Shown here one piece after another: positions 1-53,536 of a stretch of DNA of 64,000 nt (within the stretch, counting starts at the first letter, position 1; each line of letters opens with the position of its first letter). The DNA is taken from the NCBI GenBank assembly GCA_014905635.1, contig JABVCE010000012.1:372001-436000 (forward strand), given 5' to 3'. The DNA is from Scenedesmus sp. PABB004 (lineage: Eukaryota). The notes below the pieces were generated by a model that was given only the letters and a program-made list of their open reading frames with translations, was not told the origin of the DNA and did no database searches. Made by a program: the position numbers and the translations under genes.

Positions 1-1905
1 TCTCCCTCGCCACGCACGCGCGCACCACCACGACGCTGGCAGCGCCCCCCGCACACGCACGCGCGCCCAGCCACGGGCCTGCCTCGCCTCGCCCTGGCCG
101 CGCTAGGCGGCGCGCTGCGCGTCGCCCTCGAGGGCGACGTCCGAGTCCCCCTCCCCCACCCCGTCCTCGTCCTCCTCCCAATCGTCCGAGTCCTCCCCCA
201 CCCCGTCCTCGTCCGCCTCCCCATCGCCCGAGCCCCCCTCCCCCTCCCCTCCTCCCCCTCCCCCTCCCCCTCCCCCTCGTCCTCGTCCTCCCCCTCGTCC
301 TCGTCCTCATCATCCGCGAACAAGCTGAGGAAGGCAAGGAAACGGGCAATCTCAGGGTGGTCGTCCGCCGACACGGGCTGCGCTCGGATCCACGCGACCA
401 CGGCCTCGTGGCCAAGGACAAACGCCCCGTCCTCGCACTGCATGCGCTGCCACGGGCAGCCGTTGGCACGCAGCCAGCGCAGCGCCTCCAGGTGCCCGTG
501 CGCAGCCGCCAGCCTGCACACCTCCTTGTTCCACGGCGCGGGCTCGTCCTGGGCGCGCACCCAGCGCAGCATCTCCAGGTCGCCGCGCTCCGCAGCGAAC
601 CTGCACACCCAGTCCCCGTCCCACGGCACCGGCGGCATCTGCGCGCGCGCCCAGCGCAGCACATCCAGCTGCCCGCCCGCGGCAGCTCCGCAACAAGCGT
701 TCCACAGGTCCAGCCCCTCGCCGCGCGCCCACTCCAGCACGGCGAGCTGGCCGGCGCGTGCTGCCTTGTGGACCCCGCCGTGCACGTTGCAGCCGGCGCC
801 GCGCAGCCAGGCCAGCCCCGCCACGTCCCCGCACGCAGCGCGCGCCCCGGCCAGCCGCGACTGCTGCCGCCCATCACCCTGCAACGCCCGCCACGCCTCC
901 TGCACCGCCGCCAGCGGCAGCTCGGGGCAGCGCAGCGAGACGACCGTGGCGCCACGGAAGCGCTCGTGCGCCGCCTTGCAGACCAGCTTGGGGCACCACG
1001 CCTGCAGGGCCAGCGGCAGGAGGTCCAGGACATGGAGCACGAGCGGCTCGGGCAGCTCCGGCAGCGGGCTGCTGGCGGCGCGGCGGGGCGAGGGCGAGCG
1101 GGGCGGGCGGAGGGCGGTCAGGCGCGCCTGCTGCCGGCGGTGGTGGTTCGTGGGCAGCGCGTGCCGCTCCAGGCAGCATCAGCCAGGGGGGCCCCAGCAG
1201 CAGCAGCAGCGGCCCCAACTCGGCGCCGCCTCGGCCCCCGCCGGTGCCTCGCCTGCTGCCGCTGCGGCCGCGCATGCGCTCGTGGTCGGCGCGGCGTGCC
1301 GCTTGCCCGCTGGCGCAGCAGACATGGTTCCACCTGACAGCCTGCGGGCCACCAGGGAGCAGCAGGCGGGGCGCCGGCAGCAGCGTGCGAGCGCGCGGGC
1401 GGCGTGAGCGCGGCAACAGCAGCGCGCGGCGCCCGCCCCCGCCGCCCCGGCGCGGCGGCGCGACGGCGGGCCTACCAGCGGCGCCCGGAGCGCGCAGAAC
1501 TAGCGGCGCACGCCACACGCCCGCCCGCCGCGCACCGCCGGTGCCCCCGCCGCCCGCAGCGGGCGCCGCGCAGCGCGCCCCGCCCGCCCGCCGCTGCCCT
1601 CCCCGCCTGCCCGCGCGCGCGGCTCGCCTGGCGCTGCGCTGGGCGGCACGGCCTAGTCACCACGCGCCCGCGGGTCCGCGCGCCCCGCCTGGCCAGGGGC
1701 GCGCCGCGGCGGCAGCGGGCGCTGCGATTCGAACGGCAGCGCGCGTGCGAGCGGGAGCTGCGAGGGCACTTCCACCGCTGTGTGCGTTTGCGTGTGGCAT
1801 GGGGCTGTGGGCGGCGGCTGTGGGCGGCGCGCGCGGGGGGGCTCCTCGATGGCGGCGCGGGCAGACAGCCGGGCGGCGCCGCCGCCCTGCGCCGCCGCCC
1901 TGCGA
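1..1905 (-). repeat. F-box/ankyrin cassette copy A (gene + conserved leader + downstream spacer; runs off the window start)
   Basis: Leader 1326-~1905 aligns by eye with the leaders of copies B-H (e.g. ctagtcacc...ccgcctggccaggggcgc). Bases 1-90 match the spacer at 4467-4550 downstream of copy B. Boundaries are approximate. Confidence 0.85.
103..1325 (-). pseudogene. F-box + ankyrin-like repeat protein, copy A, with acidic C-terminal tail; probably defective
   Basis: ATG at 1325 ([15 protein letters not shown]). Exon 2 from 1071 reads [30 protein letters not shown]...[16 protein letters not shown]...WIRAQPVSADD then DEDEDEGE. The family donor AG|GTGGGT reads AG|TTGGGG here. A 1-nt shift in a C-run near 246 separates the ORF from the TAG at 103-105. 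Confidence 0.7.
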
Positions 1906-2338
1906 GCGCCGCGTGGTGTTTCAAGCGGCGGCGCCGCAGCAACGCCGCGCCTCCAATGCGCGCACACCAGACACACGCCAGCCAGCCAGCCAAGCGCGCC
2001 CCCAGAGCTGCGCGCTCACTCGCGCTCGAGCAGCACGCCGTCGTCCGTCGAGGACGCAGGCGACGGCCGCCCCCCTGGCCGCTGCTGCTGCGACCCGCGC
2101 GCGGCCCCGTTGCCACCGCCGCCGCTGCCGCCGCTGGGCCGCTCGACCAGCTCCCCCTCCTCCGCCTCGCAGGAGGCCTGGCGGCTGGCGCCGGCGCCAG
2201 ACGCGGCGCTCGGCGGGCCCGGCTGCGCCGCGCGGTGCTGCGCCGCCACGATGCCGCCCCAGCCCGACGTGTAGACGCTCGACGGCGCCGCAAAAGCGGA
2301 CTGCTGCTGCTCGAGGCTGCCGGCGCTGCCGCTCGCGC

Positions 2339-2744
2339 TCAGCGCGCCGCCGCCGCCGCCGCCGCCGGCGCCGCCGGCAGCGCGCGCGCCTGCTGCGCGG
2401 CTGCCGCCGCCGCCGCCGCGCCGCCCGCCCCCGGCGCCGGCGACGCCGCGCCGGGCGAGTGCAGGGCGAAGAAGGGCCCGCTCTCCACGCGCGGCAGATC
2501 GACGAGCAGGAACTGATCACCCCCGCCCGACGGCGCCGCGCCCGGCGCGCCCGGCGCGCCCGGCGGACCGCCGCCGTCGCCGCCGCCGCCGGCGCTGGCC
2601 TGTGCGCGCGCCTGCGCCTGCGCCGCCTGCGCCGCCTGCGGCTTGACGCCCGGCATGGTGCTGGTGAGGGCGTGCAGGATGTCGATGCGCTGCTGCAGCT
2701 CCGCCACCTCCTGCAGGAACGCGCGGCGCCTGCGCAGCGCAGCA

Positions 2745-2788
<44 letters not shown>

Positions 2789-3857: not shown

Positions 3858-4553
3858 GCGCGGCGACGTGGCCGCGACGCGGCCCCTGCGCGTGGGCCCA
3901 CGCACGCAACCCGCCGCGAGCTCGCCCCGCGCCCACGGGCCCCAACAGCGCCCCGGCGGTGGCGCCTTTGCGATCCCGACTGACCGCGCCCCCGCCTGGC
4001 CAGGGGCGCGCCGCGGGCGGGGGCGGGCGCCGGGCGGCGGCGGCGCGGTGCGTGCGGGCGCTGTGAGAGGCACGGCCGGTGCTGGTGTGTGCGTGCGGCA
4101 GGGGCGCTGAGGGGTACGGCTGTGGGCGGCGGGGCGGCGCGCGCGCTGGGGCCTCCTCGGCGGCGGCGCGGGCAGCCGGCCGGGCGCCTGCGCCCTGGGC
4201 CCCGCACCGCCACCCACGTGGCGCCGGGCTGGCGCGGCGCGGCGCGGCGACGTGCCGCCGTCGCCAGCGCTTGGCGCGGGAAGCTCGGCCCCCGCTCGTG
4301 CACTGCGTGCGCGGTCGGCCGCGGCCGGTTGCCAGCGCGCGCCGCCTCGCCGCCGCCAACTCCCCTCTCCCTCGGCACGCACCCGCGCACCACACGCCCC
4401 GGGCAGCGCCCGATGCACGCACGCGCGCCCAGCCAACTTCCCTCGCCGCCGCCAACTTCCCTCCCCTCTCCCTCGCCACGCGCGCGCACCAGGCCGCAGG
4501 CAGCGCCCCCCGCGCACGCGCGCGCGCCCAGCCACGGGCCTGCCTCGCCTTAA

Positions 4554-4589
4554 GACTACGATCAGGGCAAGCTTGCCCTGATCGTAGTC
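4554..4589. repeat. Perfect 36-bp palindrome
   Basis: GACTACGATCAGGGCAAG|CTTGCCCTGATCGTAGTC is self-reverse-complementary and lies about 10 bp beyond the copy B stop codon. Confidence 0.97.
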
Positions 4590-4598
4590 CGAGCTGAG

Positions 4599-5897
4599 TT
4601 AATCGGGACCGTCCGAGTCGGAGCTGTCCGGCAGCTCCCGGATCCACGCGACCATGGCCTCATGGCCATTGCGGGCCGCCGCGCGCGCACACACGCCGCG
4701 TCGCCACGGGCAGCCGTTGGCGCGCAGCCAGCGCAGCGCCTCCAACTGCCCGCGCTCAGCGGCCGTCCTGCACACCCCCTTGTCCCACGGCGCGGGCTCG
4801 GCCTGGGCGCGTGCCCAGCGCAGCATCTCCAGGTCGCCGCGCCGCGCAGCCCAATAGCACACCTGGTCGCCCCATGGCAGCGGCGGCGTCTGCGCGCGCG
4901 CCCAGCGCAGAGCCGCCAGCTGCCCGCCCTCGGCTGCTCCGCTGCACACGCCCCGCAGGTCCAGCCCCTCGCCGCGCGCCCACTCCAGCACGGCGAGGTG
5001 CCCCTTCCGAGCCGCCGCCCAGCACGCCTCCTTGTTCCACGGCGGGAGCTTCGCCTGGGCGCGCAGCCAGCGCAGCACCTCCAGGTCGCCGCGCTCCGCA
5101 GCGATGTGGCACACGTGGTCACCCCAGGGCAGCGGCGGCGTCTGCGCGCGCGCCCAGCGCAGCACCGCCAGCTGACCGCCCGTGGCTGCTGCACTGCACA
5201 CGTCTCCCAGGCCCAGCTTCTTGACGCGCGCCCGGATGGAGTGGGCCCACTCCAGCACGGCAAGGTGGCCGTGCCGCGCTGCTGGCCAGCACACGCCGCG
5301 CACGTTGCAGCCGGCGCCCTCCAGCCAGGCCAGCCCCGCCACGTCGCCGCACGCAGCGCGCGCCTCCACCAGCGACCGCCGCCGCTCCGCTGCAATCTGG
5401 CTCCAGTCGCGGCGCCCCGCGTTCCGCCCCGAGCGGCGCCGCTCTGCCATGACTTGCAACGCTCGCCAGGCCTCCTGCACCGCCGCCAGCGGCAGCTCGG
5501 GGCAGCGCACCGAGAGGTGCTTGGCGCGGCGGAAGCGCTCGCGCGCCGCCTTGCAGACCAGCCTGGCGGTCCACGCCCGCAGGGCTGGCGGCAGGAAGCT
5601 CAGGACGTGGAGCACGAGGGGTTCGGGCAGGTCGCGCCACAGGCTGGCGGCACATCGCCGGCGGCGGAGCGGACGGGTGGGCGCGGGCGGTCAGGCGGCG
5701 CCTGATGCCGGCGGTGGTGGCTTGTGGGCAGCGCGTGCCGCGCCAGGCAGCACCAGCCAGGAGGGTGCCAGCAGCCAGCGGACCCACCTCGCCGCCGCCT
5801 CCGCGCCGCCAGGCACCTCTCCCGCCGCCGCAGCTCCTGCCGCGTGCGCGCTCGTGGTCGGCCCGGCGCGTCGCTTGCCCGCCGGCGCAGCAGACAT
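4599..5897 (-). CDS. F-box + ankyrin-like repeat protein, copy B (intact; duplicated a-b-c module block)
   Basis: Exon 1 5897-5788 (110 nt), GTGGGT..CAG intron, exon 2 5643-4599. Reads [31 protein letters not shown], then repeats of type AAxxGxLxxLxW and [16 protein letters not shown]. Confidence 0.85.
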
Positions 5898-6619
5898 GGT
5901 GCCGCCTGACAGCCTGCGGGCCAGCAGGGAGCAGCAGGCGGGGCACCGGCAGACGCGGGCGAGCGCGCGGGCGGCGTGAGCGCGGCAGCAGCAGCGCGCG
6001 GCGCCCTGCCCCTGCCCCGGCCCGGCGGCGCGGCGGCGGGCCTGCCAGCGACGCCCGGGCGCGCAGGCCCGGCCGCCCACGCGACATGCCCGCCCGCCGC
6101 GCACCGCCGGTGCCCCCGCAGCCCGCGGCGGGCGCCGCGCAGCGCGGCCCGCCCGCCGCCGCTGCCCTCCCCGCCTGCCCGCGCGCCCGGCTCGCCTGGC
6201 GCTGCGCTCGGCGGCACGGCCTAGTCACCAGGCGCCCGCACGTCCGCGCCCCGCCTGGCCAGGGGCGCGTCGCGGGCGGGGGCGGGCGCGGGGCGGCGGC
6301 GGCGCGGTGTGCGTGTGGGCGCTGTGAGGGGCGCGGCCGGCGCTCGTGTGCGTGTGCGGCAGGAGCGCTGAGGGTGGCGGCTGTGGGCGGCGGGGCGGCG
6401 CGCGCGGGGGCCTCTTCGGCGGCGGCGGCGCGGGCAGCTGGCCGGGCGGCGCCTGCGCCCTGGGCCCTGCACCGCCGCCCGCGTGCCGCTGCTGCCAGGC
6501 GGGCGCGGCGCGGCGACGTGCCGCCGCTGACAGCGCCCAGCGACGGCGCAAGAGCGCGACCCGCCCAGTTCCACTGCGTGCGCGGTCGGCCGGTTGCCAG
6601 CGCGCGCCGCACGCCGAGC

Positions 6620-9541: not shown

Positions 9542-9808
9542 CGCGGCGCGGCGCGCCGGCGGGCGCCGCAGGGCGGCTGCAGCCGCAGCCGCCGGCCGGC
9601 GGGCGGGCCGCACGCCGGCGTCCGTCTGTTACGAGCCCTGGCTCCCCTCTCGCCCTCCGCCCGCCCTCCCGCGCCCGCGCCCGCGTCCGGCCCGGCCCGT
9701 CCGTCCCAGCCTGCGCTCCCTCGCGCGGCCCCTCCCCGCCGCCGCCGCGCCGCCCACGCCCGCCTCGCTCCCTGCTGGATGGAGGTCGAACCAGCAGGGC
9801 GCGCCTCT

Positions 9809-10231: not shown

Positions 10232-10312
<81 letters not shown>

Positions 10313-13442: not shown

Positions 13443-15201
13443 GGCGCGCGCTGGCAACCGGCCGACTGCAGTGCGCACCCTGGCGGGCCGCGCGCGCGCA
13501 TGCTCCCGCGCCGTCGCCGGGCGCTGGTGGCAGCACGCCTGGGCGGGCCTCGCGCACACGCTTCCACACTGCGGCGGCGGCGGCGGCGGCGGTGGCGGCA
13601 CGTCGCCGCGCCGTCCCGGCAGCCGCGGCGCGGGGGCGGCGGTGCAGGGCCCGGGGCGCAGGCGCCGCCCGGGCCGGCTGCCCGCGCCGCCGCCGAGGAG
13701 GCCCCCCGCGCGCGCCGCCCCGCTGCCCACAGCCGCCGCCCGCAGCGCCCCCTTGCCGCACGCACACGCACGAGCGCGGCCCTCACAGCGCCCGCACGCG
13801 CCGCGCCGCCGCCGCCCAGCGCCCGCCCCCCCCCCGCCCGCGGCGCGCCCCTGGCCAGGCGGGGCGCGGACCTGCGGGCGCCTAGTGACTAGGCCGTGCC
13901 GTCCAGCGCAGCGCCAGGCGAGCCGCGCGCGCGGGCAGGCGGGGAGGGCAGCGGCGGGGGCGGGCCGCGCTGCGTCCGCTGCGGGCGGCAGGGGCACCGG
14001 TGGTGCGCGGCGGGCGGGCGTGTGGCGTGTAACGCCGGACCTGCGCGCCCCTGGCGCCGCTGGCAGGCCCGCCGCCGCGCCGCCGCGCCGTGGGGCGGGG
14101 GCGGGCGCCGCGCGCTGCTGCTGCCGCGCCCACGCCGCCCGCGCGCTCGCCCGCTGCTGCCGGCGCCCCGCCCGCTGCTCCCTGGTGGCCCGCAGGCTGT
14201 CAGGTGGCACCATGTCTGCTGCGCCGGCGGGCAAGCGGCGCGCCGGGCCGACCACGCGCGCGCGGGCGGCGGCCGCAGCGGCGGCGGGCGAGGCGCCGGC
14301 TGGGGCGGAGGCGGCGCCGAGGTGGGTCCGCTGCCGTTGCAGCTGGTGACCCCTGGCTGGTGCTGCCTGACGCGGGCACACGCCGCCCACAAGCCACCGC
14401 CGCCGGCAGCAGGCGCCGCCTGACCGCGCTCGCCTGCCCGCCCCGCCCGCCGCGCTCCGCCGCGCCAGTAGCGTCTGGCGGGACCTGCCCGAGCCCCTCG
14501 TGCTCCACGTCCTGAGCCTCCGGCTGCCGGCCCTGCAGGCGTGGGCCGCCAGGCTGGTCTGCAAGGCGGCGCGCGAGCGCTTCCGTGGCGCCACGGTCGT
14601 CTCGCTGTGCTGCCCCGAGCTGCCGCTGGCGGCGGTGCAGGAGGCCTGGCGGGCGGTGCAGGGTGATGGGGAGCGGCAGCAGCGACTGGCCAGCACGCGC
14701 GCTGCGTGCGGCGACGTGGCAGGGCTGGCCTGGCTGCGCGGCGCCGGCTGCGACATGGTAGTCCACGGCAGGTTCGATGTGGACAGCGTGTGCTGGACAG
14801 CAGCAAAGCGTGGGAAGGTCGCCGTGCTGGAGTGGGCGCGGGGCCAGGGGCTGGACCTGTGGAACGCTTGTTGCGGAGCTGCCGCGGGCGGGCAGCTGGC
14901 GGCACTGCGCTGGGCGCGCGCGCAGGCGCCGCCGCTGCCGTGGGGTGACTTTGCGTACATGGTGTGCTGGCACGCTGCGCGGCGCGGCGACGTGGAGATG
15001 CTGCGCTGGGCGCGCGCCCAGGCCGAGCCCGCACCGTGGAACGAGGAGGTGTGCCGCATCGCTGCTCATTTTGGGCAGTTGGAGGCGCTGCGCTGGCTGC
15101 GCGCCAACGGCTGCCCCTGGCGGCGCAGCGACTGCGAGCGCGTGGCGGCAGACAAAGGGCACGACGACGTGGTTGCTTGGGTTCGGGCGCAGCCCGAGTG
15201 A
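13443..15201 (+). repeat. F-box/ankyrin cassette copy C
   Basis: Starts at gcgcgcgctggcaaccggccga. The leader has acceptor-like CCCCTGGCCAG (~13858) and GGCCCGCAG (14196) before the ATG at 14212. Confidence 0.88.
14212..15201 (+). CDS. F-box + ankyrin-like repeat protein, copy C (intact)
   Basis: Exon 1 14212-14321 ([18 protein letters not shown]..), intron 14322-14468 (GTGGGT..CTGAC..CAG), exon 2 14469-15201 in frame: [16 protein letters not shown]...WVRAQPE*. Confidence 0.87.
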
Positions 15202-15454
15202 GCCTGCGCGAGCCACTGCTGCCGGTGCCAGCGCGCGGGGCGTGCCTGACGTCGGGCAACCAAGTTGGACCGCCGCCACCGAACCCCTCCGCCGCGGCGC
15301 CGCCAGTTGCGCCCAGCAGCCGTGCGTGGGGGCCGCTCGCGCGGCGCCGGATGCGAGCTCTGCAGCGGCGTTGGGCCGGCGGCGCGCCGGTGCCAGCGCC
15401 AACCGCCCCGCGATGGCCGCCGGACAACCCGATGGCGCCTGAGCGCGCCGCCGC

Positions 15455-16724: not shown

Positions 16725-17120
16725 CTGCTCGAGGGTGGAACGCTAACTGGGGGGCGCTGCAGGCAGTGCATGCGGGCCGCACTGCACACTGAGCAGCATG
16801 CACTGTGAGCAGCATGCACTGTGAGCAGCTGAGGCACCGGCCCCCGCTGCGGGTGCGCGGCGGTTCGGTTGCCTGCGGCCGGGTCTGCGCTCGGGCGCGC
16901 GCCAGCGCAGGCGGTCGTGGCCAGTGCCAGCCCGTGGGCGCTGGCGTTGCGTTTCATTGATCGCTCTCGCATCTCTGACTGCTGCCTGGCGGCCGGAGGG
17001 CACGCGGCGCGGCTGGCCGCACATTCGCGGCTGCGGCGGCTCCGGTCGCGCGCGAGCTCGAGACTGGCCGGGGCATGCGCCGCAGCGGGAACTCAACGGG
17101 AACTCAACATCGGCGCGGGC

Positions 17121-18103
17121 TCACCAGGGCTGCGTCCGGATCCACGCGGCCACGGCCTCGCGGCCACGGTCAGCCGCCATGCGCTCACTGGGACCACGCC
17201 ACCACGGGCAGCCGTTGGCGCGCAGCCAGCGCAGCGCCTCCAGGTGCCCGTTCGCAGCCGCCGCCCAGCACGCCCCCCCCCCCCCCCGTCCCACGGCGCA
17301 GGCTCGGCCTGGGCGCGCGCCCAGCGCAGCATCTCCATGTCGCCGCGCTCCGCAGCGTACCTGCACACCCATCCCCCGTCCCACGGCACCGGCGGCGTCT
17401 GCGCGCGCCCCCAGCGCAGCGCCGCCAGCTGCCCGCCCCCGGCTGCTCCGGTGCACACGTCACACAGGTCGAGTCCCTGGCGGCGCGCCCACTCCAGCAC
17501 GGCGACCTGGCCATGCCTTGCTGCTGTCCAGCACACGCCACTGTGCATGTCCATGACGCAGCCGGCGCGGCGCAGCCAGGCCAGCCCCGCCACGTCGCCA
17601 CACGCCGCGCGCGCCTCCGTCAGCCGCCTCTGCTGCTCCCACCCGTCATCCTGCAACGCCCGCCACGCCTCCTGCACCGCCGCCAGCGGCAGCTCGGGGC
17701 AGTCCGCTGAGATGACCGTGGCGCCGCGGAAGCGCTTCCGCGCCACCTTGCAGACCAGCTTGGCGGCCCACGCCTGCAGGGACGGCGACAGGAAGCTCAG
17801 GACGTGGAGCACGAGCGGCTCGGGCAGGTCCCGCCAGACGCTACTGGCGCGGCGGAGCGCGGCGGGCGGGGCGGGCAGGCGAGCGCGGTCAGGCGGCGCC
17901 TGCTGCCGGCGGCGGTGGCTTGTGGGCGGCGTGTGCCCGCGTCAGGCAGCACCAGCCAGGGGTCACCAGCTGCAACGGCAGCGGACCCACCTCGGCGCCG
18001 CCTCCGCCCCAGCCGGCGCCTCGCCCGCCGCCGCTGCGGCTGCCGCCTGGCGCGCGCCCGTGGTCGGCCCGGCGCGCCGCTTGCCCGCCGGCGCAGCAGA
18101 CAT
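17121..18103 (-). pseudogene. F-box + ankyrin-like repeat protein, copy D; frameshifted at a G15 tract as assembled
   Basis: ATG 18103; exon 2 reads ...AEPAPWD, then C15 at 17273-17287 shifts the frame; ACWAAAANGHLEALRW...WIRTQPW* continues in another frame. Could be a sequencing error. Confidence 0.6.
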
Positions 18104-18850
18104 GGTTCCACCTGACAGCCTGCGGGCCACCAGGGAGCAGCAGGCGGGGCGCCGGCAGCAGCGTGCGAGCGCGCGCGGGCGGCGTGAGCGCGGCAGCAGC
18201 AGCGCGCGCGGCGCCCGTCCCCACCCCGTGGCGCGGCGGCGCGGCGGCGGGCCTGCCAGCGGCGCCAGGGGCGCGCAGGCCCGGCGTTACACGCCACACG
18301 CCCGCCCGCCGCGCACCACCGGTGCCCCTGCCGCCCACAGCGGACGCCGCGCAGCGCGGCCCGCCCGCCGCCGCTCCCCTTCCCGCCCGCCCGCGCGCCC
18401 GGCTCGCCTGGCGCTGCGCTGGGAGGCACGGCCCGGCCGTCAGGCGCCCGCAGGTCGGCGCCTCGCCTGGCCAGGGGCGCGCAGCGGGCGGGGCGGGCGC
18501 TGGGCGGCGGCGGCGCGGTGCGTCCGGGCGCTGCGGGCCGCGGCCGGCGCTCGTGTGCGTGCGTGGCAGGGGCGCTGAGGGTGGCGGCGGGGCGGCGCGC
18601 GGGGCGGCCTCCTCGGCGGCGGCGCGGGCAGCCAGCCGGGCGGCGCCTGCGCCCTGGGCCCTGCACCGCCGCCTGCGTGCCGCGGCTGCCGGGCGGGCGC
18701 GGCGCGGCGACGTGCTGCCGCCAGCGCCCGGCGCAGGACCGCGACCCGCTGAGATCCACTGCGTGCGCGGCCGGCCGGTTGCCGGCGCGCGCCGCCTCGC
18801 TCTCCGCCCGCCTCGCGCCCACCCTCCCGCCCGCGCCAACTCTCCCCCCA
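17121..18850 (-). repeat. F-box/ankyrin cassette copy D
   Basis: Intron and flanks are essentially identical (reverse complement) to copy C. Leader reaches ccggttgccggcgcgcgccgcctcgc (~18800) and gccaactc (~18840). Confidence 0.88.
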
Positions 18851-26759: not shown

Positions 26760-26904
26760 GCGGCGCGCCGCGGCGACGCCGGGCGGCGGGGGCAGCGGGG
26801 AGCACTGCGCAGGAGGGCGCGGCAGGGCAGGGCGCGGCAGGAGGTTTTGGCTCATCGTCGCGAATTGTTGTGTGACCGCTGCAATTGCTTGTCGCCGGGC
26901 CGCG

Positions 26905-28455
26905 ACCGGCGCGGGGCGGCGGTGCAGGGCCCAGGCGCCGCCCGGCCGGCTGCCCGCGCCGGCGGCGGGGAGGCCCGCGCGCGCGCCGCCCCCCCGCCCA
27001 CAGCCGCCGCCCTCAGCGCCCCCGCCGCAAACACACACGCACACAGCGCCGGCCGCGGCCCACAGCTCCCGCACGCGCCGCGCCGCCGCCGCCCCGCGCC
27101 CGCCCCCGCCCGCGGCGCGCCCCTGGCCAGGCGGGGCGCGGACCTGCGGGCGCCTGGTGACTAGCTCGTGCCGCCCAGCGCAGCGCCAGGCGAGCCGCGC
27201 GCGCGGGCAGGCGGTGAGCAGGCAGCGGCGGCGGGCCGTGCAGCGCGGCGCGGCGCCCGCCGCGGGCGGCGGGGGCACCGGCGGTGCGCGGCAGGCGGGC
27301 GTGTTGGGTGATCACCCGGGCCTGCGCGCCTCGGGCGTCGCTGGCAGGCCCGCCGCCGCGCCGCCGCGCTGGGGCGGGGGCGGGCCGCCGCGCGCTGCTG
27401 CGGCCGCGCTCACGCCGCCCGCGCGCTCGCCCGCTGCTGCCGGCGCCCCGCCTGCTGCCCTGATGGCCCGCAGGCTGTCAGGCGGCGCCATGTCTGCTGC
27501 GCCGGCGGGCAAGCGGCTCGCCGGGCCGACCACGAGCGCGCGGGCGCCGGCCGCAGCGGCGCCAGGCGAGGCGCCGGCTGGGGCGGAGGCGGCGCCGAGG
27601 TGGGTCCGCTGCTGCTGCTGCCGGGCCCCCCTGACTGCTGATGCTGCCTGACGCGGCACGTCCTGCCCACAAGCCACCGCCGCCGGCAGCACGCGCCGCC
27701 TGACCGCGCTCGCCTGCCCGCCCCGCCCGCCGCGCCCCGCCCGCGCCGCCAGCAGCCCGCTGCCAGAGCTGCCCGAGCCGCTCGTGCTCCACGTTCTGGA
27801 CCTCCTGCCGCCGGCCCTGCAGGCGTGGGCCGCCAAGCTGGTCTGCAAGGCGGCGCGCGAGCGCTTCCGCGGCGCCACGGTCGTCTCGCTGTGCTGCCCC
27901 GGCCTGCCGCTGGCGGCGGTGCGGGAGGCCTGGCGGGCGGTTCGGGGTGACGATCCGTGGCAGCAGCTGCAGCTGGCCAGGGCGCGTGCGGCGTGTGGCG
28001 ACGTGGCGGGGCTGGCCTGGCTGCGGGGGTCCGGCTGCGACATGGACGGCGTGTGCGAGGCAGCAGCGGAGCATGGCCAGGTCGCTGTGCTGGAGTGGGC
28101 GCGCGACCAGGGGCTCGACCTGTGTGACGTGTGCCGCGGAGCGGCCGCTGGCGGGCACCTGGATGTGCTGCGCTGGGCGCGCAAGCAGACGCCGCCGGTG
28201 TCCTGGGGCGGCGCTGTGTGCTTCTACGCTGCGCGGCGTGGCGACCTGGAGATGCTGCGCTGGGCGCGCGCCCAGGCCGAGCCCGCGCCGTGGGGCGAGT
28301 CGGCGTGCTATATGGCGGCTAAGTTTGGGCACCTGGAGGTGCTGCGCTGGCTGCGCGCCAACGGCTGCCCGTGGTTGCGCGGTCTGTGCGAGCACGTGGC
28401 GGCGGACCATGGCCACGACGCAGTGGCTGCGTGGATCCGGGCGCAGCCTGAGTGA
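26905..28455 (+). repeat. F-box/ankyrin cassette copy E
   Basis: Leader from about ggcgcggggcggcggtgcagggc; near-identical (inverted) to copy F through about 28135. Confidence 0.88.
27490..28455 (+). CDS. F-box + ankyrin-like repeat protein, copy E (intact)
   Basis: Exon 1 27490-27599, intron 27600-27752, exon 2 27753-28455: [30 protein letters not shown]...WIRAQPE*. Confidence 0.87.
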
Positions 28456-28536
28456 TTTGTCGCCAGTGAAACCCAGCGGCGTTGCACGCACGACCCCGGA
28501 CGCCACCTCTCCGCGCGCGCGCCGCAGCTGCAGCTG

Positions 28537-33072: not shown

Positions 33073-33257
33073 CGCGGCGGGCGGCGGGGCAGCGCGCCCA
33101 GCCCCTGCTGCGCGATGCAGCGGCAGCGCCGCGCGCCGAGCGCGGCACGAGGGCGGCAACTAGCGGACTGCGATGGCGCAGGCGGACGGCTCGCACAGTG
33201 GCGCGCGGGGCGGCGCCGCGATTTGAACGGCTGGCGCTGTTGGGCCCGTCCGCGGCG

Positions 33258-35250
33258 GGCGCTTGTGCGAGTGTGGCAGGAGGGCGGCGGCTGTGGGCGG
33301 CGGGCGGCGCACGGGAGGCCTCCGCGGCGGCGGCGGGCAGGCGGCCGGGCGGCGCCTGCGCCCTGGGCCCTGCACCGCCGCCCCCGCGCCGCCGCTGCCG
33401 GGCGGGCGCGGCGACGTGCCGCCACCGCCGCCGCCGCCGCCGCCGCAGTGTGGAAGCGTGTGCGCGAGGCCCGCCCAGGCGGCGCGGTCGGCCGGTTGCC
33501 AGCGCGCGCACCGCCTCGCTCCGGCCCGCTGCTGCCAGCGCCAACTCTCGTCGCCACGCTGTCACCACGCCGCGCACAACTGCCTCCCGCCACGGCCGCC
33601 AAACCCGACGGCGACTCACTCGGGCTGCGCCTGGATCCACGCAAGCATGGCCTCGTGGCCACGGCCCAGCGCCAAGAGCTCGCACTCGAAACACGACCAC
33701 GGGCAGCCGTTGGCGCGCAGCCAGCGCAGCGCCTCCAGGTGCCCGCACTCAGCCGCTGCGCAGCACGTCGTCCAGTCCCACGGGCAGCCGTTGGCGCGCA
33801 GCCAGCGCAGCGCCTCCACCTGCCCGTGCTCAGCTGCCAGCCTGCACACTTCCTTGTTCCACGGCGCGGGCTCCGCCTGGGCGCGCGTCCAGCGCAGCAT
33901 CTCCACGTCGCCGCGCTCCGCAGCGGCGTAGCACACATACTTGCCCCAGGGCACTGGCGGCGTCTGCGCGCGCGCCCAGCGCAGCACCGCCAGCTGACCG
34001 TGCCAGGCCGCTCCGTGGCACACGTCACACAGGTCGAGCCCCTGGTCGCGCGCCCGCTCCAGCACAGCGACCTGGCCATGCTCCGCTGCTGCCTCGCACA
34101 CGCCGTCCATGTCGCAGCCGGACCCCCGCAGCCAGGCCAGCCCCGCCACGTCGCCACACGCCGCACGCGCCCTGGCCAGCTGCAGCTGCTGCCACGGATC
34201 GTCACCCCGAACCGCCCGCCAGGCCTCCCGCACCGCCGCCAGCGGCAGGCCGGGGCAGCACAGCGAGACGACCGTGGCGCCGCGGAAGCGCTTCCGCGCC
34301 GCCTTGCAGACCAGCTTGGCGGCCCACGCCTGCAGGGCCGGCGGCAGGAGGTCCAGAACGTGGAGCACGAGCGGCTCGGGCAGCTCTGGCAGCGGGCTGC
34401 TGGCGGCGCGGGCGGGGCGCGGCGGGCGGGGCGGGCAGGCGAGCGCGGTCAGGCGGCGCGTGCTGCCGGCGGTGGTGGCTTGTGGGCAGCACGTGCCGCG
34501 CCAGGCAGCAGCAGTCAGGGGGTGCCAGCAGCAGCAGCAGCGGACCCACCTCGGCGCCGCCTCGCCCCAGCCGGCGCCTCGCCTGCCGCCGCTGCGGCTG
34601 CCGCCTGGCGCGCGCCCGTGGTCGGCCCGGCGCGCCGCTTGCCCGCCGGCGCAGCAGACATGGTGCCGCCTGACAGCCTGCGGGCCATCAGGGCAGCAGG
34701 CGGGGCGCCGGCAGCAGCGGGCGAGCGCGCGGGCGGCGTGAGCGCGGCCGCAGCAGCGCGCGGCGGCCCGCCCCCGCCCCAGCGCGGCGGCGCGGCGGCG
34801 GGCCTGCCAGCGACGCCCGAGGCGCGCAGGCCCGGGTGATCACCCAACACGCCCGCCTGCCGCGCACCGCCGGTGCCCCCGCCGCCCGCAGCGGGCGCCG
34901 CGCAGCGCGGCCCGCCCGCCGCCGCTGCCTGCTCACCGCCTGCCCGCGCGCGCGGCTCGCCTGGCGCTGCGACGGGCGGCACGATCTAGTCACCAGGCAC
35001 CCGCACGTCCGCGCCTCGCCTGGCCAGGGGCGCGCCGCGGGCGGGGCGGGCGCTGGGCAGCGGCGCGGTGCGTGCGGGAGCTGCGAGGGCCGCGCCGGCG
35101 CTCGTGTGTGCGTGTGGCAGGGGCGCTGAGGGCGGCGGCTGTGGGCGGCGGGGCGGCGCGCGCGGGGGCCTCCTCGGCGGCGGCGCGGGCAGGCGGCCGG
35201 GCGGCGCCCTGGGCCCTGCGGCGCCGCCCGCCCGCTGCCGGGCGCGCAGC
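33258..35250 (-). repeat. F-box/ankyrin cassette copy F with trailing leader fragment (33258-33510) and spacer (33510-33615)
   Basis: The trailing fragment repeats part of the leader (compare 35097-35250 and 13540-13740). The spacer matches the G/H spacer at 52210-52317. Confidence 0.87.
33616..34661 (-). CDS. F-box + ankyrin-like repeat protein, copy F (duplicated d module; exon 1 is 1 nt short as assembled)
   Basis: Exon 2 is open to WIQAQPE* with two [10 protein letters not shown] modules. Exon 1 34661-34550 is 112 nt, whereas other copies have 110 or 113 nt, so either a frameshift or a sequencing error. Confidence 0.7.
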
Positions 35251-46256: not shown

Positions 46257-46288
<32 letters not shown>

Positions 46289-47023: not shown

Positions 47024-47531
47024 GCGGCGGCCGGCGCCGCCGCTGGCGCCAGGGCGGCGGCGCGGCGGCGGGCGCGCGGGCGGCCGCGGTGCAAGCTTGC
47101 CGCGCCCTGGCACGAGCGCCGCCGGCCGTGCGCGCGCCCTGCCGCCCTCGGCGCCACTCCCGGCCGACTCCTGGCGCGCCCGGGGACCACGGCACGGCCT
47201 CTCCGCGCGAACCGGAAGCTCTTGCGATCGAAACAGCAGCGGCAGCGCCGCGACAGCTGCGGACGCGTCGGGCATGGCCGTGCATTGATCAGGCGAGTGC
47301 CGGCGAGTGCCGGCGCGGGCGGGCGGGGGCGGGCGGGGGGGGGCCGACTCCGCTTGCCCCGCGCCTCGCTCGGTGCGAGCCGGGGCCTGCGGGGCAGTCC
47401 GTGGGCTTGTGATGACGCATGGCCGTCGCTGAGCCCGGCCCTCGCCCGCCGCAAGCGCAGGGCGCGCGGCCCGGGCATCGCGCCCGAGCGGGCGGCCCCC
47501 CGGGGCCCCCGGGAGCCGCGGCGCGGTGCCG

Positions 47532-50115
47532 ATGGCGCTGGGCGGGCCTCCAGCAGGGCTGGCGCGGCCGGCCCGGCGGCGCGCGGCCCTGCTGCTGCTG
47601 CTCGTGGCGGCAGTCGCGGCAGCGGGCGGCGGGCGCGGCGCGGCCGCCGCGCCGACGCCCGTGCCGCCCCTCGCGCGGCCGGTGGGCGCCGCGGGCGCCG
47701 CGGGCGCGGCGGCGGCGGCGCCGCTGCTGGCGCCGGCGCAGGAGCGCGCCGCGGCGGCGCCGCTCCCGGCTGCTGCGGCCGCTGCACCCGCGGCGCCGCC
47801 GGCGGCCGACGCGCCGCCGGGCGTGCCGCGCCTGGAGCTGGCCAAGTGGAACCGCGCGTACGTGCTGCGGCTGAGCAACGTGAGCGACGCGGTCAACGCC
47901 GAGTACCTGGTCGTCCCGGAGACCTGCCGCGCCGAGGGCTTCGACTCGGAGCCGTCGGCAGCGCCGCTCGACGCGTGCTTCACGCGCCGCAACGACGCTG
48001 GGCTGATTGACTACTGGGTCAAGAAACCGGGTGCGCCGCGGGCGCGGGGGCGGGAGGCTGAGGGGCCGCAGCGCGGGAGGAGGCTGAGGGCACGGGCGCG
48101 CTCGAGCGCGCGCCGACGCGCGGGCGCGCCGCCCCGCCGCGCCGCCGCGCCGCGCAGGCGACTGGCGCGTGAACAGCAACTGCTACTGCTACGCGCTGAA
48201 CGTCTACCGCGGCGGCTTCTGCATCCCTGGCCGCGGCAGCGCGGTCATCACGGCCGCGATGAAGGGCGGCGCGGCGCCGACGTGCGAGCTCATGACCGCC
48301 GCGCTGCTCGCCGATGGCGCGCGCGAGGTGCCGCGCGCGGCCGCGCTCGGGCCGCAGCCGGCGGCGGGGCACTACATCGGCCTGCTCGTGCGCCCGCGCG
48401 GCTGCAACCCCTACCACTGCTGGGAGCAGGCGCGCGCGCCGCGCCGCCGCGCCGCGCCGCGCCGCGCCGCGCCGCGCCTGCAGCTCGACGGGGCCGGCCC
48501 CCTCGCCGGCGGCCTGCGCCACGTGGCGAGGCCGGGGCGTGCGGCGCCGGCGGCGCCTGACGCCCGCCGCCGCCCGCCGCGCGCGCGCAGGACTTTCACG
48601 CCGTGCGCCGCGACGCGGGCGGCCTCTGGAGCTGGAAGGAGCCCGGCGGGCCCGCGAGCGACGCGGACCTGCACGGCGCCAAGATCTCCGACCCCGAGGC
48701 CGCGGTGCTGCCGGGGCACTACAGCTTCTGCGCCTACTTCCACGTCGAGCCGGCGCGCATGACCATCGGCGGCGACTTTGGCGGCGACTTCACCGGCGGG
48801 TGGAGCCTCAAGGCGCTGTCAGACTTTTACCGCCGCCTGCCGGGCGTGGACGTGCGGCTGGCGGTGAGCGCGCCGTACGCGCCGTCGACCGACGGCGCGC
48901 CCGACCGCTGGGCGGCGAAGCAGCTTGAGGAGGACCTGCGCTGGGAGGCAAAGCGCGGCACGCCGGAGTGGGACGCGTGGGCCGCGGCGCAGCGGGCCGG
49001 CGCCGGCGCGGGCGCGGCGGCGGCCGCGGCCGCGCGCGCGCGGTGCCGGCGGCGGCGGCGGCGGCGGCGGCCACGACGTCACCAACCTCTACGGCCGCGG
49101 CGCCCCGCCCGGCGGCGGCGCCGAGTTGCCCGGCGCCGCGACCAACCTGCAGGCGCGGCCGGCGGCCGACGCGCTCGGCCGCGGCGCAGCGCCCGGCGGG
49201 CAGGCGGCGGCGGCGGCGGCGGCGGCGACAGTCGTGCAGCCAGCGCAGCCGGCGGCAACAGTGCAGCCGGTGCAGCCGGTGGTGCTGCCGCAGCCGGCAG
49301 CGGCTTTGCAGCCCACCGCGGCAGCAACGGCGCAGCCCGCCGCGGCAGCGGCGGCAGCAGCGCAGCCCACGGCCCTGCCCGCCGCGGCAGCAACGGCGCA
49401 GCCCGCCGCGGCAGCGGCGGCAGCAGCGCAGCCCGCGGCCCAGCCTGCCGCGGCGCAGCCCGCCGCGGCAGCGGCGGCAGCAGCGCAGCCCACGGCCCTG
49501 CCCGCCGCGGCAGCAACGGCGCAGCCCGCCGCGGCAGCGGCGGCAGCAGCGCAGCCCGCGGCCCAGCCTGCCGCGGCGCAGCCCGCAGCGGCAGCGGCGG
49601 CGGCAGCGCAGCCCACGGCCCTGCCCGCCGCGGCAGCAACGGCGCAGCCCGCCGCGGCAGCGGCGGCAGCAGCGCAGCCCGCGGCCCAGCCTGCCGCGGC
49701 GGCGCAGCCCGCAGCGGCAGCGGCGGCGGCAGCGCAGCCGGCGGCCGCAGCGGCGGTGGTCGCGGCGCAGGCGGCGGCGGCGGCGGCGGCGCAGCCGGCG
49801 CTGCTGCCGGCAGCGGCGGCGGGCGCCGCCAACGCAAGCACGCCGCTCGCGTTCAGCAGCCTGCCCACGAGCGCAGCTGCCGCGGACGGCACCAAGCCCC
49901 GTCGGCCGGCAACCACGGCCGTCGCGTCGCGCGCTGCGGCGCCGCCCGTGCGCCCGACCGCGGCGCCAGGCCGGGTGCCGGGGCTGCCCGCGGCGCCGGC
50001 GCTGACGCCGGCCGCCGCGGCGGCGCAGCGCGCGCGCGTGACCGCGCGCCGGCTGCTCGGGCGGCTGGCCGGTGAGCCGCGGCGCTCTGGCGACGCCGGC
50101 CGCGTCGCGCGCTGA
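47532..50115 (+). CDS. Secreted protein with NCYxYA / DFH / WSxK motif domain and Ala-Gln-Pro repeat tail
   Basis: Signal-like AALLLLLVAAVAAA; exons NSNCYCYALN..PGRG, HYIGLLV, DFHAVRRDAGGLWSWKEPGG..KISDPE..YSFCAYF; frame change near 49030. Confidence 0.7.
49321..49740 (+). repeat. 123-bp (41-codon) coding tandem repeat, about 3 units
   Basis: CCCACGGCCCTGCCC recurs at 49366, 49489 and 49612. Confidence 0.92.
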
Positions 50116-50526
50116 GCAGCGCCCCCGCCCGACTGACAGTTTTGACGCCGCGCGCGCGGGGCGGCGGCAGCCCATGCGTGCTTTGCGACACGAGCACGCG
50201 CCTCGGCTGGCCCCCCGCGCGCCGCACCCCGCATTGCGACCAACCACCCCCCTGACGACGACTGCGCAGCACTAGTGTACTGTCGCCGCGCGCTGCTGTT
50301 TTTGTGTTCGTTCTGCGCGTGAACGGGCGACAGCTCGGGCCACCCCATTCCTTGTCTGGCGCGCGGCCGGGAAACTCAACCCCTGATTACCGCAGCAAAC
50401 TCCCCCCCACGGTCGGCGCCGCGCTCGGTCGCCAGCGCCGCCGCCGCGGCACGCAGCGCGGCATGCGCCCCACAGACAGCCCTGCTGCCGCGCGCTCGCT
50501 TCGCTGCGCGATGCTCACACGCCAGC

Positions 50527-51535
50527 TCACTCGGGCTGCGCCCGGATCCACGCGACCACGGCCTCGCGGCCATGGTCCGCCGCCACGTCCTCGCACTCAG
50601 CGCGCCGCCACCGGCAGCCGTTGGCGCGCAGCCAGCGCAGCACCTCCAGGTGCCCGTTCGCAGCCGCAAATTGGCACACCTTGTCGCTCCACGGCGCGGG
50701 CTTGGCCTGGGCGCGCGCCCAGCGCAGCACCTCCAGGTCGCCGCGCCGCGCAGCGACGTGGCACACCCCGAACAGCGAGTCACCCCAGGGCAGCGGCGGC
50801 GCCTGCGCGCGCGCCCAGCGCAGCACCGTCATGCGCCCGCCCTCGGCTGCCCCGCGGCACACGTCCTGCAGGTCCAGCCCCTCGCCGCGCGCCCACTCCA
50901 GCACGGCGAGCTGGCCGGCGCGCGCTGCTGCCCAGACCATGCCGTCCACCATAATCCCTCTGCCTGTGTCATACACGCGGCCCATGTCGCAGCCGGCGCC
51001 GCGCAGCCAGGCAAGCCCCGCCACATCGCCGCACGCCGCGCGCGCCCTGGCCAGCCGCAGCTGCTGCTGCCCCGGGCCGTCCTGCGCCGCCCGCCAGGCC
51101 TCCCGCACCGCCGCGAGCGGCAGGTCGGGGCAGCGCAGCGAGACGCGTCTGGCGCCGCGGAAGCGCTCGCGCGCCGCCTTGCAGACCAGCTTGGCGGCCC
51201 ATGCCTGCAGGGCCGGCGACCAGAGGCCCAGGACGTGGAGCACGAGCGGCTCGGGCAGCTCCGGCAGCGCGCTGCAGGCGCGCGGCGGGGGCGGGCAGGC
51301 GGGCGGGGCGGGCGGCGAGCGGTCAGGCGGCGCCTGCTGCTGGCGGCGGTGGCTTGTGGGCGGCGCGTGCGGCGCCGGGCAGCACCAGCCAGAGAGCACC
51401 AGCAGCAGCAGCAGCGGACCCACACCTCGCCGCCGCCTCCACCCCAGCCAGCGCCTCGCCTGCCGCTGCTGCGGCCGCCGCGTGCGCGCTCGTGGTCGGC
51501 CCTGCGTGCCGCTTGCTCGCCGGCGCAGCAGACTT
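50527..51535 (-). pseudogene. F-box + ankyrin-like repeat protein, copy G; family start codon mutated
   Basis: ACC-ATG-TCT of other copies reads ACC-AAG-TCT (51535-51533). Exon 2 51271-50527 is still open to WIRAQPE*. Confidence 0.65.
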
Positions 51536-52317
51536 GGTGCCGCTTCTGACAGCCTGCGGGCCACCCGGGAGCAGCAGGCGGGGCACCGGCAGCGGGCAAG
51601 CGCGCGGGCGGCGTGAGCGCGGCAGCAGCAGCGCGCAGCCCCCGCCCCCGCCCCAGCGCGGCGGCGCGGCTGCGGGCCCGCCAGCGGCGCCCAGGGCGCG
51701 CAGGCCCGGCGGCCCACGCGACACGCCCGCCCGCAGCGCACCGCCACAGCCCCGGCCGCCCGCAGCGGGCGCCGCGCAGCGCGGCCCGCCCGCCGCCGCT
51801 GCCCTCCCCGCCTGCCCGCGCGCGCGGCTCGCCTGGCGTTGCGCTGGGCGGCACGAGCTAGTCACCAGGCGCCCGCAGGTCCGCGCCCCGCCTGGCCAGG
51901 GGCGCGCCGCGGGCGGGGGCGGGCGGTGCGATTCGAACGGCGGCGCGCTGTGAGGGCTGTGATCACGGACTGAGGACTGAGGGCGGCGGCTGTGGGCGGC
52001 GCGGCATGCGGGGGGCCTCCTCGGCGGCGCGGGCAGCCGGCGGGCGCAGCGCCTGCGCCCTGGGCCCTGCACCACCGCCCCCGCGCCGCGGCCGCTGCGG
52101 GCGCGGCGCGATGACGTGCCGCCGCTGCCGCCACCGCAGTGCTCGGCGGCGTGGGAGCGTGTGCGCGAGGCCCGCCGAGGCGGCGCGGTCGGCCGGTTGC
52201 CAGCGCGCGCGCCGCTTCGCTCCGGCCCGCTGCTGCCAGCGCCAACTCTCGTCGCCACGCTGTCACCACGCCGCGCACAGCTGGCTGCCTCCCGCCACGG
52301 GCACCAAAGCCGGCGGC

Positions 52318-53536
52318 TCACTCAGGCTGCGCCTGGATCCACGCGAGCATGGCCTCGTCGCGACGCCACGCCGCCGAGCGCTCGCACTTGGCGCGCTCCC
52401 ACGGGCAGCCGTTGGCGCGCAGCCAGCGCAGCGCCTCCAGGTGCCCGTTCGCAGCCCCCCCCCCCCCCCCGCACACCCACTCGTTCCACGGCGCGGGCTC
52501 GCCCTGTGCGCGCGCCCAGCGCGGCATCTCCAGGTCGCCGCGCCGCGCAGCGTAGTAACACACGTGGGTGCCCCACGGCAGCGGCGGCGTCTGCGCGCGC
52601 GCCCAGCGCAGCACCGCCAGCTGACCGTGCCAGGCTGCTCCGGTGCACACGCCCCGCAGGTCCAGCCCCTCGCCGCTCGCCCACTCCAGGACGGCGAGGT
52701 GCCCCTTCCGAGCCGCCGCCACGCACGCCCGCTCGTCCCACAGTGCAGGCTCGGCCTGGGCGCGCGCCCAGCGCAGCATCTCCAGGTCGCCGCGTTCCGC
52801 AGCGAAGAGGCACACGAGGTCGCCCAGCGCCAGCGGCGGCGTCTGCGCGCGCGCCCAGCGCAGCACGCACAGCTGCCCGCCCATGGCTGCGCCCTCACAC
52901 ACAAGCTGCAGGTCCAGCCCCTCGTCGCGCGCCCACTCCAGCACGGCGAGCTGGCCGGCGCGCGCTGCGCCCAATGCAACAAAGGCCAGGTCGTCGCAGC
53001 CGGCGCCGCGCAGCCAAGCCAGCCCCGCCACGTCGCCACACGCTGCACGCGCTTCCGCCAGCCGCGACTGCTGCTCCTCATCAACCCCCGCTGCCCGCCA
53101 GGCCTCCTGCACCGCCGCCAGCGGCAGGTCGGGGCAGCGCAGCGAGACGCGTCTGGCGCCGCGGAAGCGCTCGCGCGCCGCCTTGCAGACCAGCTTGGCG
53201 GCCCACACCCGCAGGGCCGGCGGCAGGAAGCTCAGGACGTGCAGCACGAGGGGCTCGGGCAGCTCCGGCAGCGGGCTGCTGGCACGGGCGGGGGCAGGCA
53301 GGCGGGCAGGGCGGGCGGCGAGCGGTCAGGCGGCGCCTGCTGCTGGCGGCGGTGGCTTGTAGGCGGCGCGTGCGGCGCCGGGCAGCACCAGCCAGGGGGT
53401 GCCAGCAGCAGCGGCAACGGACCCACCTCGGCGCCGCCTCCGCCCCAGCCAGCGCCTCGCCTGCCGCCGCTGCGGCCGCCGCGCGCGCGCGCGTGGTCGG
53501 CCCGGCGCGCCGCTTGCCCGCCGGCGCAGCAGACAT
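52318..53536 (-). CDS. F-box + ankyrin-like repeat protein, copy H (intact; duplicated a-b-c block; in-frame G16 tract)
   Basis: Exon 1 53536-53427, exon 2 53278-52318; ends WIQAQPE*. Confidence 0.87.

Follow-up and report, generated by a model that had tools for sequence, protein, structure and literature searches.

The window analyzed here is a 64,000-nucleotide (nt) stretch of the genome of the green alga Scenedesmus sp. PABB004 (assembly GCA_014905635.1, contig JABVCE010000012.1, positions 372,001 to 436,000). It carries eight copies (A to H) of a small nuclear gene unit encoding an ankyrin-repeat protein, and comparison of the aligned copies demonstrates recombination or gene conversion between them. 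We regard it as highly probable that the locus is an ordinary clustered multigene family shaped by ectopic gene conversion and unequal crossing-over, with birth and death of copies. This reading is favored because the paralogs are clustered, the exchanged tracts are two-sided and include non-coding DNA, the number of repeats changes in register, and pseudogene-like lesions are present. No new mechanism is revealed, since the pattern is known behavior of clustered multigene families; the formal tests document that a small ankyrin family, so far seen in one algal lineage, evolves in concert and shuffles its modules. An earlier note, made from the letters alone, had described the copies as patchwork mosaics arising through exchange, a description that the homoplasy, fragment, and tree tests given below uphold.

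BLAST of one copy and its flanks against the window returned eight paralogous units of about 1.5 to 1.9 kb each. These eight copies form the family sample for the tests, and the donors considered are those within the window. The unit alignment divides each unit into about 700 nt of conserved upstream DNA, exon 1, an intron, and exon 2, which codes for a weakly F-box-like head followed by ankyrin modules. The copies are listed below with their gene models; the BLAST extent is added in brackets where it differs from the span given.

146..1944, minus strand, copy A: ATG 1325, exon 1 1325-1219, intron 1218-1072, exon 2 from 1071; modules 0-a-b-c-d-e starting at 842, 764, 686, 596, 509, and 425 (BLAST 371-1900)
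4599..6525, minus strand, copy B, intact: ATG 5897, exon 1 5897-5788, intron to about 5647/5644; modules 0-a-b-c-a2-b2-c2-d-e; C-terminus ELPDSSDSDGPD; stop 4599-4601 (BLAST 4627-6525)
13530..15209, plus strand, copy C, intact: ATG 14212, exon 1 14212-14321, intron 14322-14468, exon 2 14469-15198, stop 15199-15201; modules 0-a-b-c-d-e
17113..18728, minus strand, copy D: ATG 18103, exon 1 113 nt long, intron 17990-17844; the frame shifts within a 15-nt homopolymer (17273-17287) that lies between module c and module d, with d and e readable in the shifted frame
26907..28455, plus strand, copy E, intact: ATG 27490, exon 1 27490-27599, intron 27600-27752, exon 2 27753-28452, stop 28453-28455
33615..35238, minus strand, copy F: ATG 34661, exon 2 34399-33619; modules 0-a-b-c-d-d2-e; exon 1 of 112 nt, one G fewer than the 113 nt of D, which shifts the frame
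50525..52182, minus strand, copy G: AAG at the start codon (51535), exon 2 51274-50530; modules 0-a-b-c-d-e
52315..54217, minus strand, copy H, intact: ATG 53536, exon 1 53536-53427, intron 53426-53279, exon 2 53278-52321; modules 0-a-b-c-a2-b2-c2-d-e; a 16-nt homopolymer (52455-52470) keeps the frame and is translated as GGGGG

Sequence exchange between copies

The pairwise homoplasy index (PHI), computed on 1445 ungapped columns with 253 informative sites, was 0.413 against 0.487 in the permuted data (z = -10.4), and 0/5000 permutations were as low as the observed value. A GENECONV-like permutation test identified 10 fragments in 8 of the 28 pairs at a global p of <0.05, which belong to C-D, G-H, E-F (three pieces), E-H, A-C, E-G, A-G, and C-H. 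Four tracts are given here.

C 14273-14493 (plus strand) and D 18039-17819: 221/221 nt identical, over 77 family-polymorphic sites
G 51917-51694 (minus strand) and H 53922-53699: 224/224 nt identical, in upstream non-coding DNA
E 27263-28147 (plus strand) and F 34888-34005: 862/888 columns identical
A 665-716 (minus strand) and C 14848-14899: 52/52 nt identical at the a/b junction, GLDLWNACCGAAAGGQL, global p ≤ 0.0005

The C-D tract covers the entire intron together with the end of exon 1 and the beginning of exon 2, and both of its flanks are 9 to 13% diverged. The E-F tract extends from the upstream DNA through module a and stops abruptly at the border between modules a and b. All three of the longer tracts (C-D, G-H, and E-F) are two-sided, lying within flanks that are 5 to 20% diverged. 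At the E-F break, which falls at 28141 in E and 34011 in F, differences rise from 4% (48/1135) on the left to 20% (62/310) on the right (Fisher 6e-17). Synonymous differences rise as well, with 1 at about 86 sites on the left and 9.2 at 60 sites on the right. This synonymous jump indicates different ancestry on the two sides rather than selection or faster protein evolution.

Trees of five segments (U1, U2, EI, FB0a, and b-e) were cross-tested with the approximately unbiased (AU) test. The b-e tree is rejected by the data of U2, EI, and FB0a (AU 2.6e-8, 1.2e-4, and 8e-7), as is the U1 tree, while the b-e data reject the U1 and FB0a trees (AU 0.009 and 0.021) but not those of U2 (0.14) or EI (0.083). 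The statement in the earlier note that no one tree explains all of the copies thus stands, with the best tree of each segment rejected by data of other segments; congruent trees combined with a lack of recombination signal were looked for and not found. It is extremely improbable that the shared blocks arose with no exchange at all, through homoplasy under ankyrin framework constraint and rate differences along the gene. Such an account would fit the blocks shared by A and D and by A and F, neither of which is significant, as well as the nearly invariant framework positions and the poor resolution of the b-e tree. It is contradicted by the significant PHI and tree cross-tests, by identical tracts of 221 and 224 nt that extend over 62 to 77 polymorphic sites and into non-coding DNA, and by the synonymous jump at the E-F breakpoint.

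The signal is unevenly placed along the unit. By region, PHI is significant upstream (z = -7.4), in exon 1 plus the intron (p = 0.036), and across modules 0 to e (z = -4.2), and once the modules had been realigned one by one, with B, H, and F tried in either register, modules 0 to e were significant in both (z = -7.7 and -5.6). Each of the top three tracts (C-D, G-H, and E-F) joins one of the four pairs that lie closest together along the DNA (chance, 4/3276): G and H lie head-to-tail with a gap of 133 nt, G being downstream of H, and C/D and E/F are tail-to-tail inverted pairs with gaps of 1904 and 5160 nt, respectively. The same adjacent pairs stand out in the 5′ part, where they are 92 to 97% identical, and the tree of the 5′ 1.1 kb groups (C,D), (E,F), and (G,H) with 99 to 100% support. 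Identity in b-e is 76 to 84% in every pair at any physical distance. The longest tracts join physically adjacent copies, so that exchange homogenizes them. Upstream DNA and intron are conserved like the exons (mean pairwise identity, 0.83 to 0.93), and the ratio of nonsynonymous to synonymous divergence (dN/dS) between copies is mostly 0.6 to 1.5. Judged from these alignments, similarity appears to be kept largely by homogenization, the average constraint at the protein level being weak.

Several results weigh against conversion as the explanation of the whole unit. PHI is not significant for the head region alone (p = 0.21) or for modules b to e alone (p = 0.06 and 0.42 with windows of 100 and 50 nt, respectively), and the realigned b-e modules gave p values of 0.013 and 0.18 without any fragment reaching global significance. 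The data of these modules, whose tree is poorly resolved, do not reject the groupings E+F, G+H, and C+D (AU 0.33 to 0.42). Over all 28 pairs, the rank correlation between physical distance and 5′ identity falls short of significance (rho = -0.33, p = 0.083). At least four further family proteins occur in Scenedesmus sp. PABB004, none more than 77% identical to any copy. The tracts are read from a single assembly, which leaves some weight to an origin in assembly or polishing.

In that event, misassigned paralog reads would have made the tracts, the chimeric junctions, and the single-base lesions. Two lesions do lie in or near G-runs (the 15-nt homopolymer of D and the G lost from exon 1 of F), and identical tracts of 220 to 900 nt are as expected from mis-polishing between paralogs. 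The tracts, however, link physically adjacent copies and not the overall most similar ones, they are two-sided within diverged flanks, and the unit is small (1.7 to 1.9 kb) with unique genes between the copies. The accessible part of the genome report (PMC12571836) gives a genome of 39.8 Mb with 78.5% G+C in 77 contigs (N50, 1.3 Mb), an assembly that suggests long reads. We infer that the tracts are biological and consider an assembly artifact very improbable. Regions as rich in paralogs as this one, with 80% G+C (about 78 to 84% along the whole window and ∼80% overall), nevertheless call for read-level validation.

Module order and variable positions

Modules were cut at the A-A-x-x-G...L-x-W core in every copy. 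All eight copies agree with the orders that had been claimed: A, C, D, E, and G read 0-a-b-c-d-e, B and H read 0-a-b-c-a-b-c-d-e, and F reads 0-a-b-c-d-d-e. When the 39 modules of types a to d are placed in a tree, types a and d each form one clade (100/100), and the four module labels need 3 changes on the tree, which is the minimum, against 22.3 when shuffled. Tandem Repeats Finder (TRF) detects the a-b-c duplication in B with a period of 252 and 82% matches.

Eight short peptide blocks shared by conflicting sets of copies had been offered as signs of exchange. Regular-expression searches of six-frame translations found all of them in exactly the copies named, but only about three are individually significant. 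The A-C block is significant at the global p value given above. The F-H block (F_b versus H_b2) has a p value of 0.024 in one of two registers, and the A-G block is borderline (p = 0.026 to 0.074). The A-D block (p about 0.3) and the A-F block (p = 0.68 within modules b to e) do not reach significance. The block in module a2 of B and H is identical at 75/78 nt, and the sister placement of the two modules (100/94) would follow if the nine-module form arose once. Like GLDLCDVC in D, E, and F, which agrees with the local tree, this block is compatible with shared descent.

Around the motif V-C-x-x-A-A-x-x-G, the minimum count of non-synonymous changes is 95/126 at positions -6, -5, -2, -1, 3, and 4, while the module framework (A1, A2, G5, L10, W12, and others) is nearly fixed. 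By the Nei-Gojobori (NG) method, dN/dS is 1.48 at these six hypervariable positions versus 0.70 at framework codons, and the proportion of nonsynonymous differences (pN) exceeds that of synonymous differences (pS) in 25/28 pairs at the hypervariable positions and in 6/28 at framework codons. Positive or diversifying selection at the six positions is suggested, not demonstrated. Two results count against it: synonymous divergence, too, is raised at the hypervariable codons (pS 0.415 versus 0.135), and variable sites show a third-position excess nowhere in the exon. The six positions, in the loop and helix 1, may be variable through diversifying selection or through relaxed constraint. Profile alignment to Espin places positions 3 and 4 directly after the canonical “AA,” positions -4 and -3 on the canonical “PL,” and position -6 in the loop. 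We take module positions 3, 4, and -6 to be among those randomized in designed ankyrin binders, where they contact the target. The six hypervariable positions of each module lend some support to a diversified binding surface formed by the repeats.

The stronger proposal was that frequent segmental exchange builds combinatorial binding surfaces, in other words that a dedicated diversification system exists in which exchange is selected to assemble new ankyrin-module combinations into a repertoire. Module numbers that vary in register with the repeat would agree with such a system, as would short identities across copies and registers (A-C, p ≤ 0.0005; F_b versus H_b2, p = 0.024), the elevated dN/dS of 1.48 at six positions per module, and the alignment with canonical repeats, which places positions 3, 4, and -6 behind “AA” and in the loop. 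Yet the strongest tracts lie outside the variable modules, where they homogenize adjacent copies, the b-e signal is weak, and any exchange in b-e must be old since all pairs there are 76 to 84% identical. Each copy has its own upstream DNA, start site, and intron, with no silent cassettes and no single expression site; housekeeping genes are interspersed, and half of the copies carry lesions. We consider selected diversification improbable, and the likeness that had been drawn to variant-antigen repertoires is not supported, on the same genomic grounds. Trypanosome VSG, Plasmodium var, Borrelia vlsE, and lamprey VLR are programmed mosaic antigen or receptor systems. The present family resembles them in that mosaic genes are made from paralog segments, and it differs in having neither silent cassettes nor a dedicated expression site and in that exchange is not focused on the variable part.

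Under the preferred reading of an ordinary clustered family, the mosaic similarity would derive from non-allelic homologous recombination between copies. Most events would be short two-sided conversion tracts of about 50 to 900 nt, chiefly between neighbors that are inverted (C/D and E/F) or in tandem (G/H), and conversion between inverted copies would delete no DNA. Rare unequal or illegitimate crossover in repeat register would have added a-b-c in B and H or d in F. Conversion would homogenize the upstream DNA, intron, head, and first modules, with b-e staying about 20% diverged, and copies would decay and be replaced. The divergence of b-e could reflect either selection that removes converted alleles or donors that lie outside the window.

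Besides the eight units, BLAST found two solo 5′ fragments and one weak self-inverted match (55178-55443; 271 nt, 74.5%) to be repeated in the window. The fragments are as follows.

3984-4345, minus strand: solo copy of the 5′-most unit segment, 3′ of B, 83% identical to the upstream DNA of B (6244-6610)
33200-33509, minus strand: solo copy of the 5′-most unit segment, 3′ of F, 92.7% identical to C 13536-13741

The fragment at 3984-4345 is probably the remnant of a lost tandem neighbor. The fragment at 33200-33509, together with the last modules of F, parallels the H-to-G junction, and the spacer that F and H had been said to share is real, with 86% identity over 484 nt that extend into the start of the next unit. 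The solo fragments after B and F and the F/H spacer would be leftovers of former tandem neighbors. The 5′-most segment follows B, F, and H (as the start of G), which are the three copies with extra modules. A mobile element was considered and set aside: the 5′ homology borders vary by copy, the 3′ border is the stop codon, and there is no sign of defined element ends, although the search did not extend to terminal repeats or target-site duplications. Broken tandem or inverted duplications are preferred as the source of the unit layout.

The encoded protein and comparable families

The copies encode ankyrin-repeat proteins that form a stack of ∼33-residue helix-turn-helix repeats. Pfam Ank_4 scored above the threshold of 22.7 bits in 14/14 family members scanned (56.8 bits in B; 31.5 to 36 bits in C and H). 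The AlphaFold2 (AF2) model of exon 2 of C has a mean predicted local distance difference test score (pLDDT) of 83.7, rising to 90 to 98 over the repeats (residues about 110 to 240), with paired helices at every module. Foldseek matched this model best to AnkB, DARPins, Espin, and FEM1B/FEM1C, with 42 matches at E ≤ 0.001, although identity to the AnkB- and FEM1-type structural matches is low (12 to 20%). A single-sequence PDB search returned no match, and the family profile was needed; it matches the Espin ankyrin repeats at an E value of 7.5e-13.

The copies may be F-box/ankyrin ligase adaptors, a resemblance rather than an assigned membership, and its likely function would be that of interchangeable substrate adaptors of a cullin-type ubiquitin ligase. 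An F-box-like match occurs at one N-terminal place in 9/14 members, PF00646 was matched in 3/14, and F-box occurs in 21% of the members of one nearby Atlas cluster, which is a lead only. Counting against the assignment, the N-terminal matches are below threshold (16 to 19.6 bits versus a cut-off of 24.3), the head helices predicted at residues 8 to 15 and 20 to 37 have pLDDT values of only 50 to 60, and no F-box structure is among the listed Foldseek matches of the C model.

The closest protein relatives are four Scenedesmus sp. PABB004 hypothetical proteins at 60 to 69% identity, 77% at most to any window copy, and farther matches are ankyrin proteins of chlorophytes and metagenomes. A search with the 95-residue N-terminal head (C 14470-14754) gave only four matches, all from Scenedesmus sp. 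PABB004 (5.8 billion sequences; lengths 133 to 426 only). Two of the public gene models for these proteins appear to be wrong, in that P0003 runs on across the intron and P0002 joins two tandem copies into one; the present analysis supplies a clean two-exon model for genes that are partly read through or fused in the automatic annotation of Scenedesmus sp. PABB004. In the open-access papers searched, we found no account of this family, nor of F-box/ankyrin gene conversion in green algae.

Expansions of F-box adaptors were reportedly treated by Thomas in Genome Research in 2006, and exchange among S-locus F-box genes reportedly by Kubo and coworkers in Nature Plants in 2015. Expanded, fast-evolving F-box adaptor families of nematodes and plants are described in the accessible part of PMC8120010. 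The present family is like these in its clustered, lineage-specific expansion, in its constant docking head joined to a variable recognition domain, in its high copy turnover, and in the concentration of variability in the recognition part. It is unlike them in its ankyrin recognition domain, its sub-threshold F-box, its chlorophycean host, and in that positive selection is not demonstrated. In S-locus F-box (SLF) clusters, according to the accessible portion of PMC10118302, paralogs exchange sequence by gene conversion. The likeness to these lies in tandemly clustered F-box paralogs (here F-box-like) with exchange between copies, whereas the present genes have a different C-terminal domain and no visible link to a self-recognition locus.

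In plant NLR clusters, repeats are shuffled by unequal crossing-over and gene conversion. Shared features are in-register changes of repeat number, mosaic paralogs, hypervariable solvent-exposed repeat positions, and pseudogenes within the cluster; the repeats here are ankyrin and not leucine-rich, the genes are much smaller, and no immune role is shown. Legionella AnkB and poxvirus ANK/PRANC are F-box plus ANK proteins, and FEM1 docks by other motifs. As in FEM1B/FEM1C and Legionella AnkB, the ankyrin solenoid would be the substrate-binding part of a ligase adaptor, and as in AnkB an N-terminal head precedes the ANK repeats, unlike in poxvirus ANK/PRANC, where the F-box-like part is C-terminal.

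A more far-reaching reading, which we think unlikely, is that the family is a lineage-restricted, fast-turnover repertoire of F-box-like/ankyrin adaptors that tracks variable targets, for example, proteins of viruses or parasites. Conversion would then keep promoter, intron, and ligase-docking head uniform across neighbors, while selection against conversion would preserve the differences among the recognition modules b to e, which would diversify at six surface positions per module and now and then by shuffling of modules. If true, the family would stand beside the adaptive F-box expansions of nematodes and plants as their counterpart among green algae.

Gene model, neighboring genes, and other features of the window

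Exon 1 is 110 to 113 nt long, and the intron, about 141 to 153 nt, ends in CAG. The start ATGTCTGCTGCG is conserved, with AAG instead of ATG as the start codon in G, and the donor GTGGGT is conserved, with TT in A; the TT in place of GT is likely a lesion. An in-frame stop lies within the intron of C and A, so the intron must be spliced. In B and G, the AG acceptor is 3 nt downstream of the family position. G+C by codon position (GC1, 0.77 to 0.81; GC2, 0.56 to 0.60; GC3, 0.88 to 0.93) follows the same pattern as in neighboring conserved genes.

Lesions are present in 4/8 copies (A, D, F, and G), and B, C, E, and H are intact. The single-base lesions, especially those within G-runs, could be sequencing errors. 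Homopolymers of at least 11 nt occur in the window at 17273-17287, 52455-52470, 24673-24692, and 43733-43743. Those of D and H both lie in the loop between module c or c2 and module d, at slightly different codon positions, and such loop homopolymers could be slippage-prone sites or sequencing trouble spots.

Two types of C-terminus are found. In the first, C, E, F, G, and H end in ...AQPE and a stop, and D ends in ...TQPW and a stop in its shifted frame; the second is an Asp/Glu-rich extension in A, shorter in B, that is also present in the related proteins P0001, P0003, and P0004. Copy A has no AQPE stop, and its acidic Glu/Asp/Gly tail (146-372) runs off the window start without a stop.

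Upstream, the ∼400 nt before the start, e.g., 13837-14211 in C and 27109-27489 in E, correspond to alignment columns 840 to 1228, and a near-invariant block of ∼130 nt (columns 840 to 960) is present in all eight copies. A hidden coding sequence was considered for this DNA and rejected, as it has no conserved open frame or codon periodicity, although the exon lacks periodicity too. The whole window had no match in Rfam, which indicates that the conserved upstream 400 nt are not a known RNA.

Ordinary intron-split eukaryotic genes sit between the copies. Those recognized are as follows.

About 6.2-7.9 kb: TatD DNase
10-11.5 kb: S24 peptidase
12.2-13.1 kb: thioredoxin
24.1-26.8 kb: CDC20/Fizzy WD40 protein
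35760-40505, minus strand, between F and G: CHY/RING zinc-finger and hemerythrin protein, with hemerythrin, CHY zinc-finger, RING, and zinc-ribbon matches
44-47 kb: AAA_11/AAA_12 helicase
54-57 kb: M18 aminopeptidase

The domain set of the gene at 35760-40505 is presumably that of BRUTUS-type iron-sensing E3 ligases. When two freshwater-metagenome runs were compared with 26100-29500, only contigs of 137 to 220 nt fit, and none of them bridged a mosaic junction. Contigs of 137 to 151 nt match copy E at 27834-27984, 27997-28132, and 28341-28491 with 0 to 2 differences, and the same or a very close alga is probably present in such freshwater samples at low depth. A microsatellite, (GCGGG)x35, occupies 25851-26028 within the span of the CDC20-like gene, and a tandem repeat of 123 nt (49328-49746; 3.4 copies, 97% matches) lies inside a larger array rich in Ala and Gln codons at 49309-49795.

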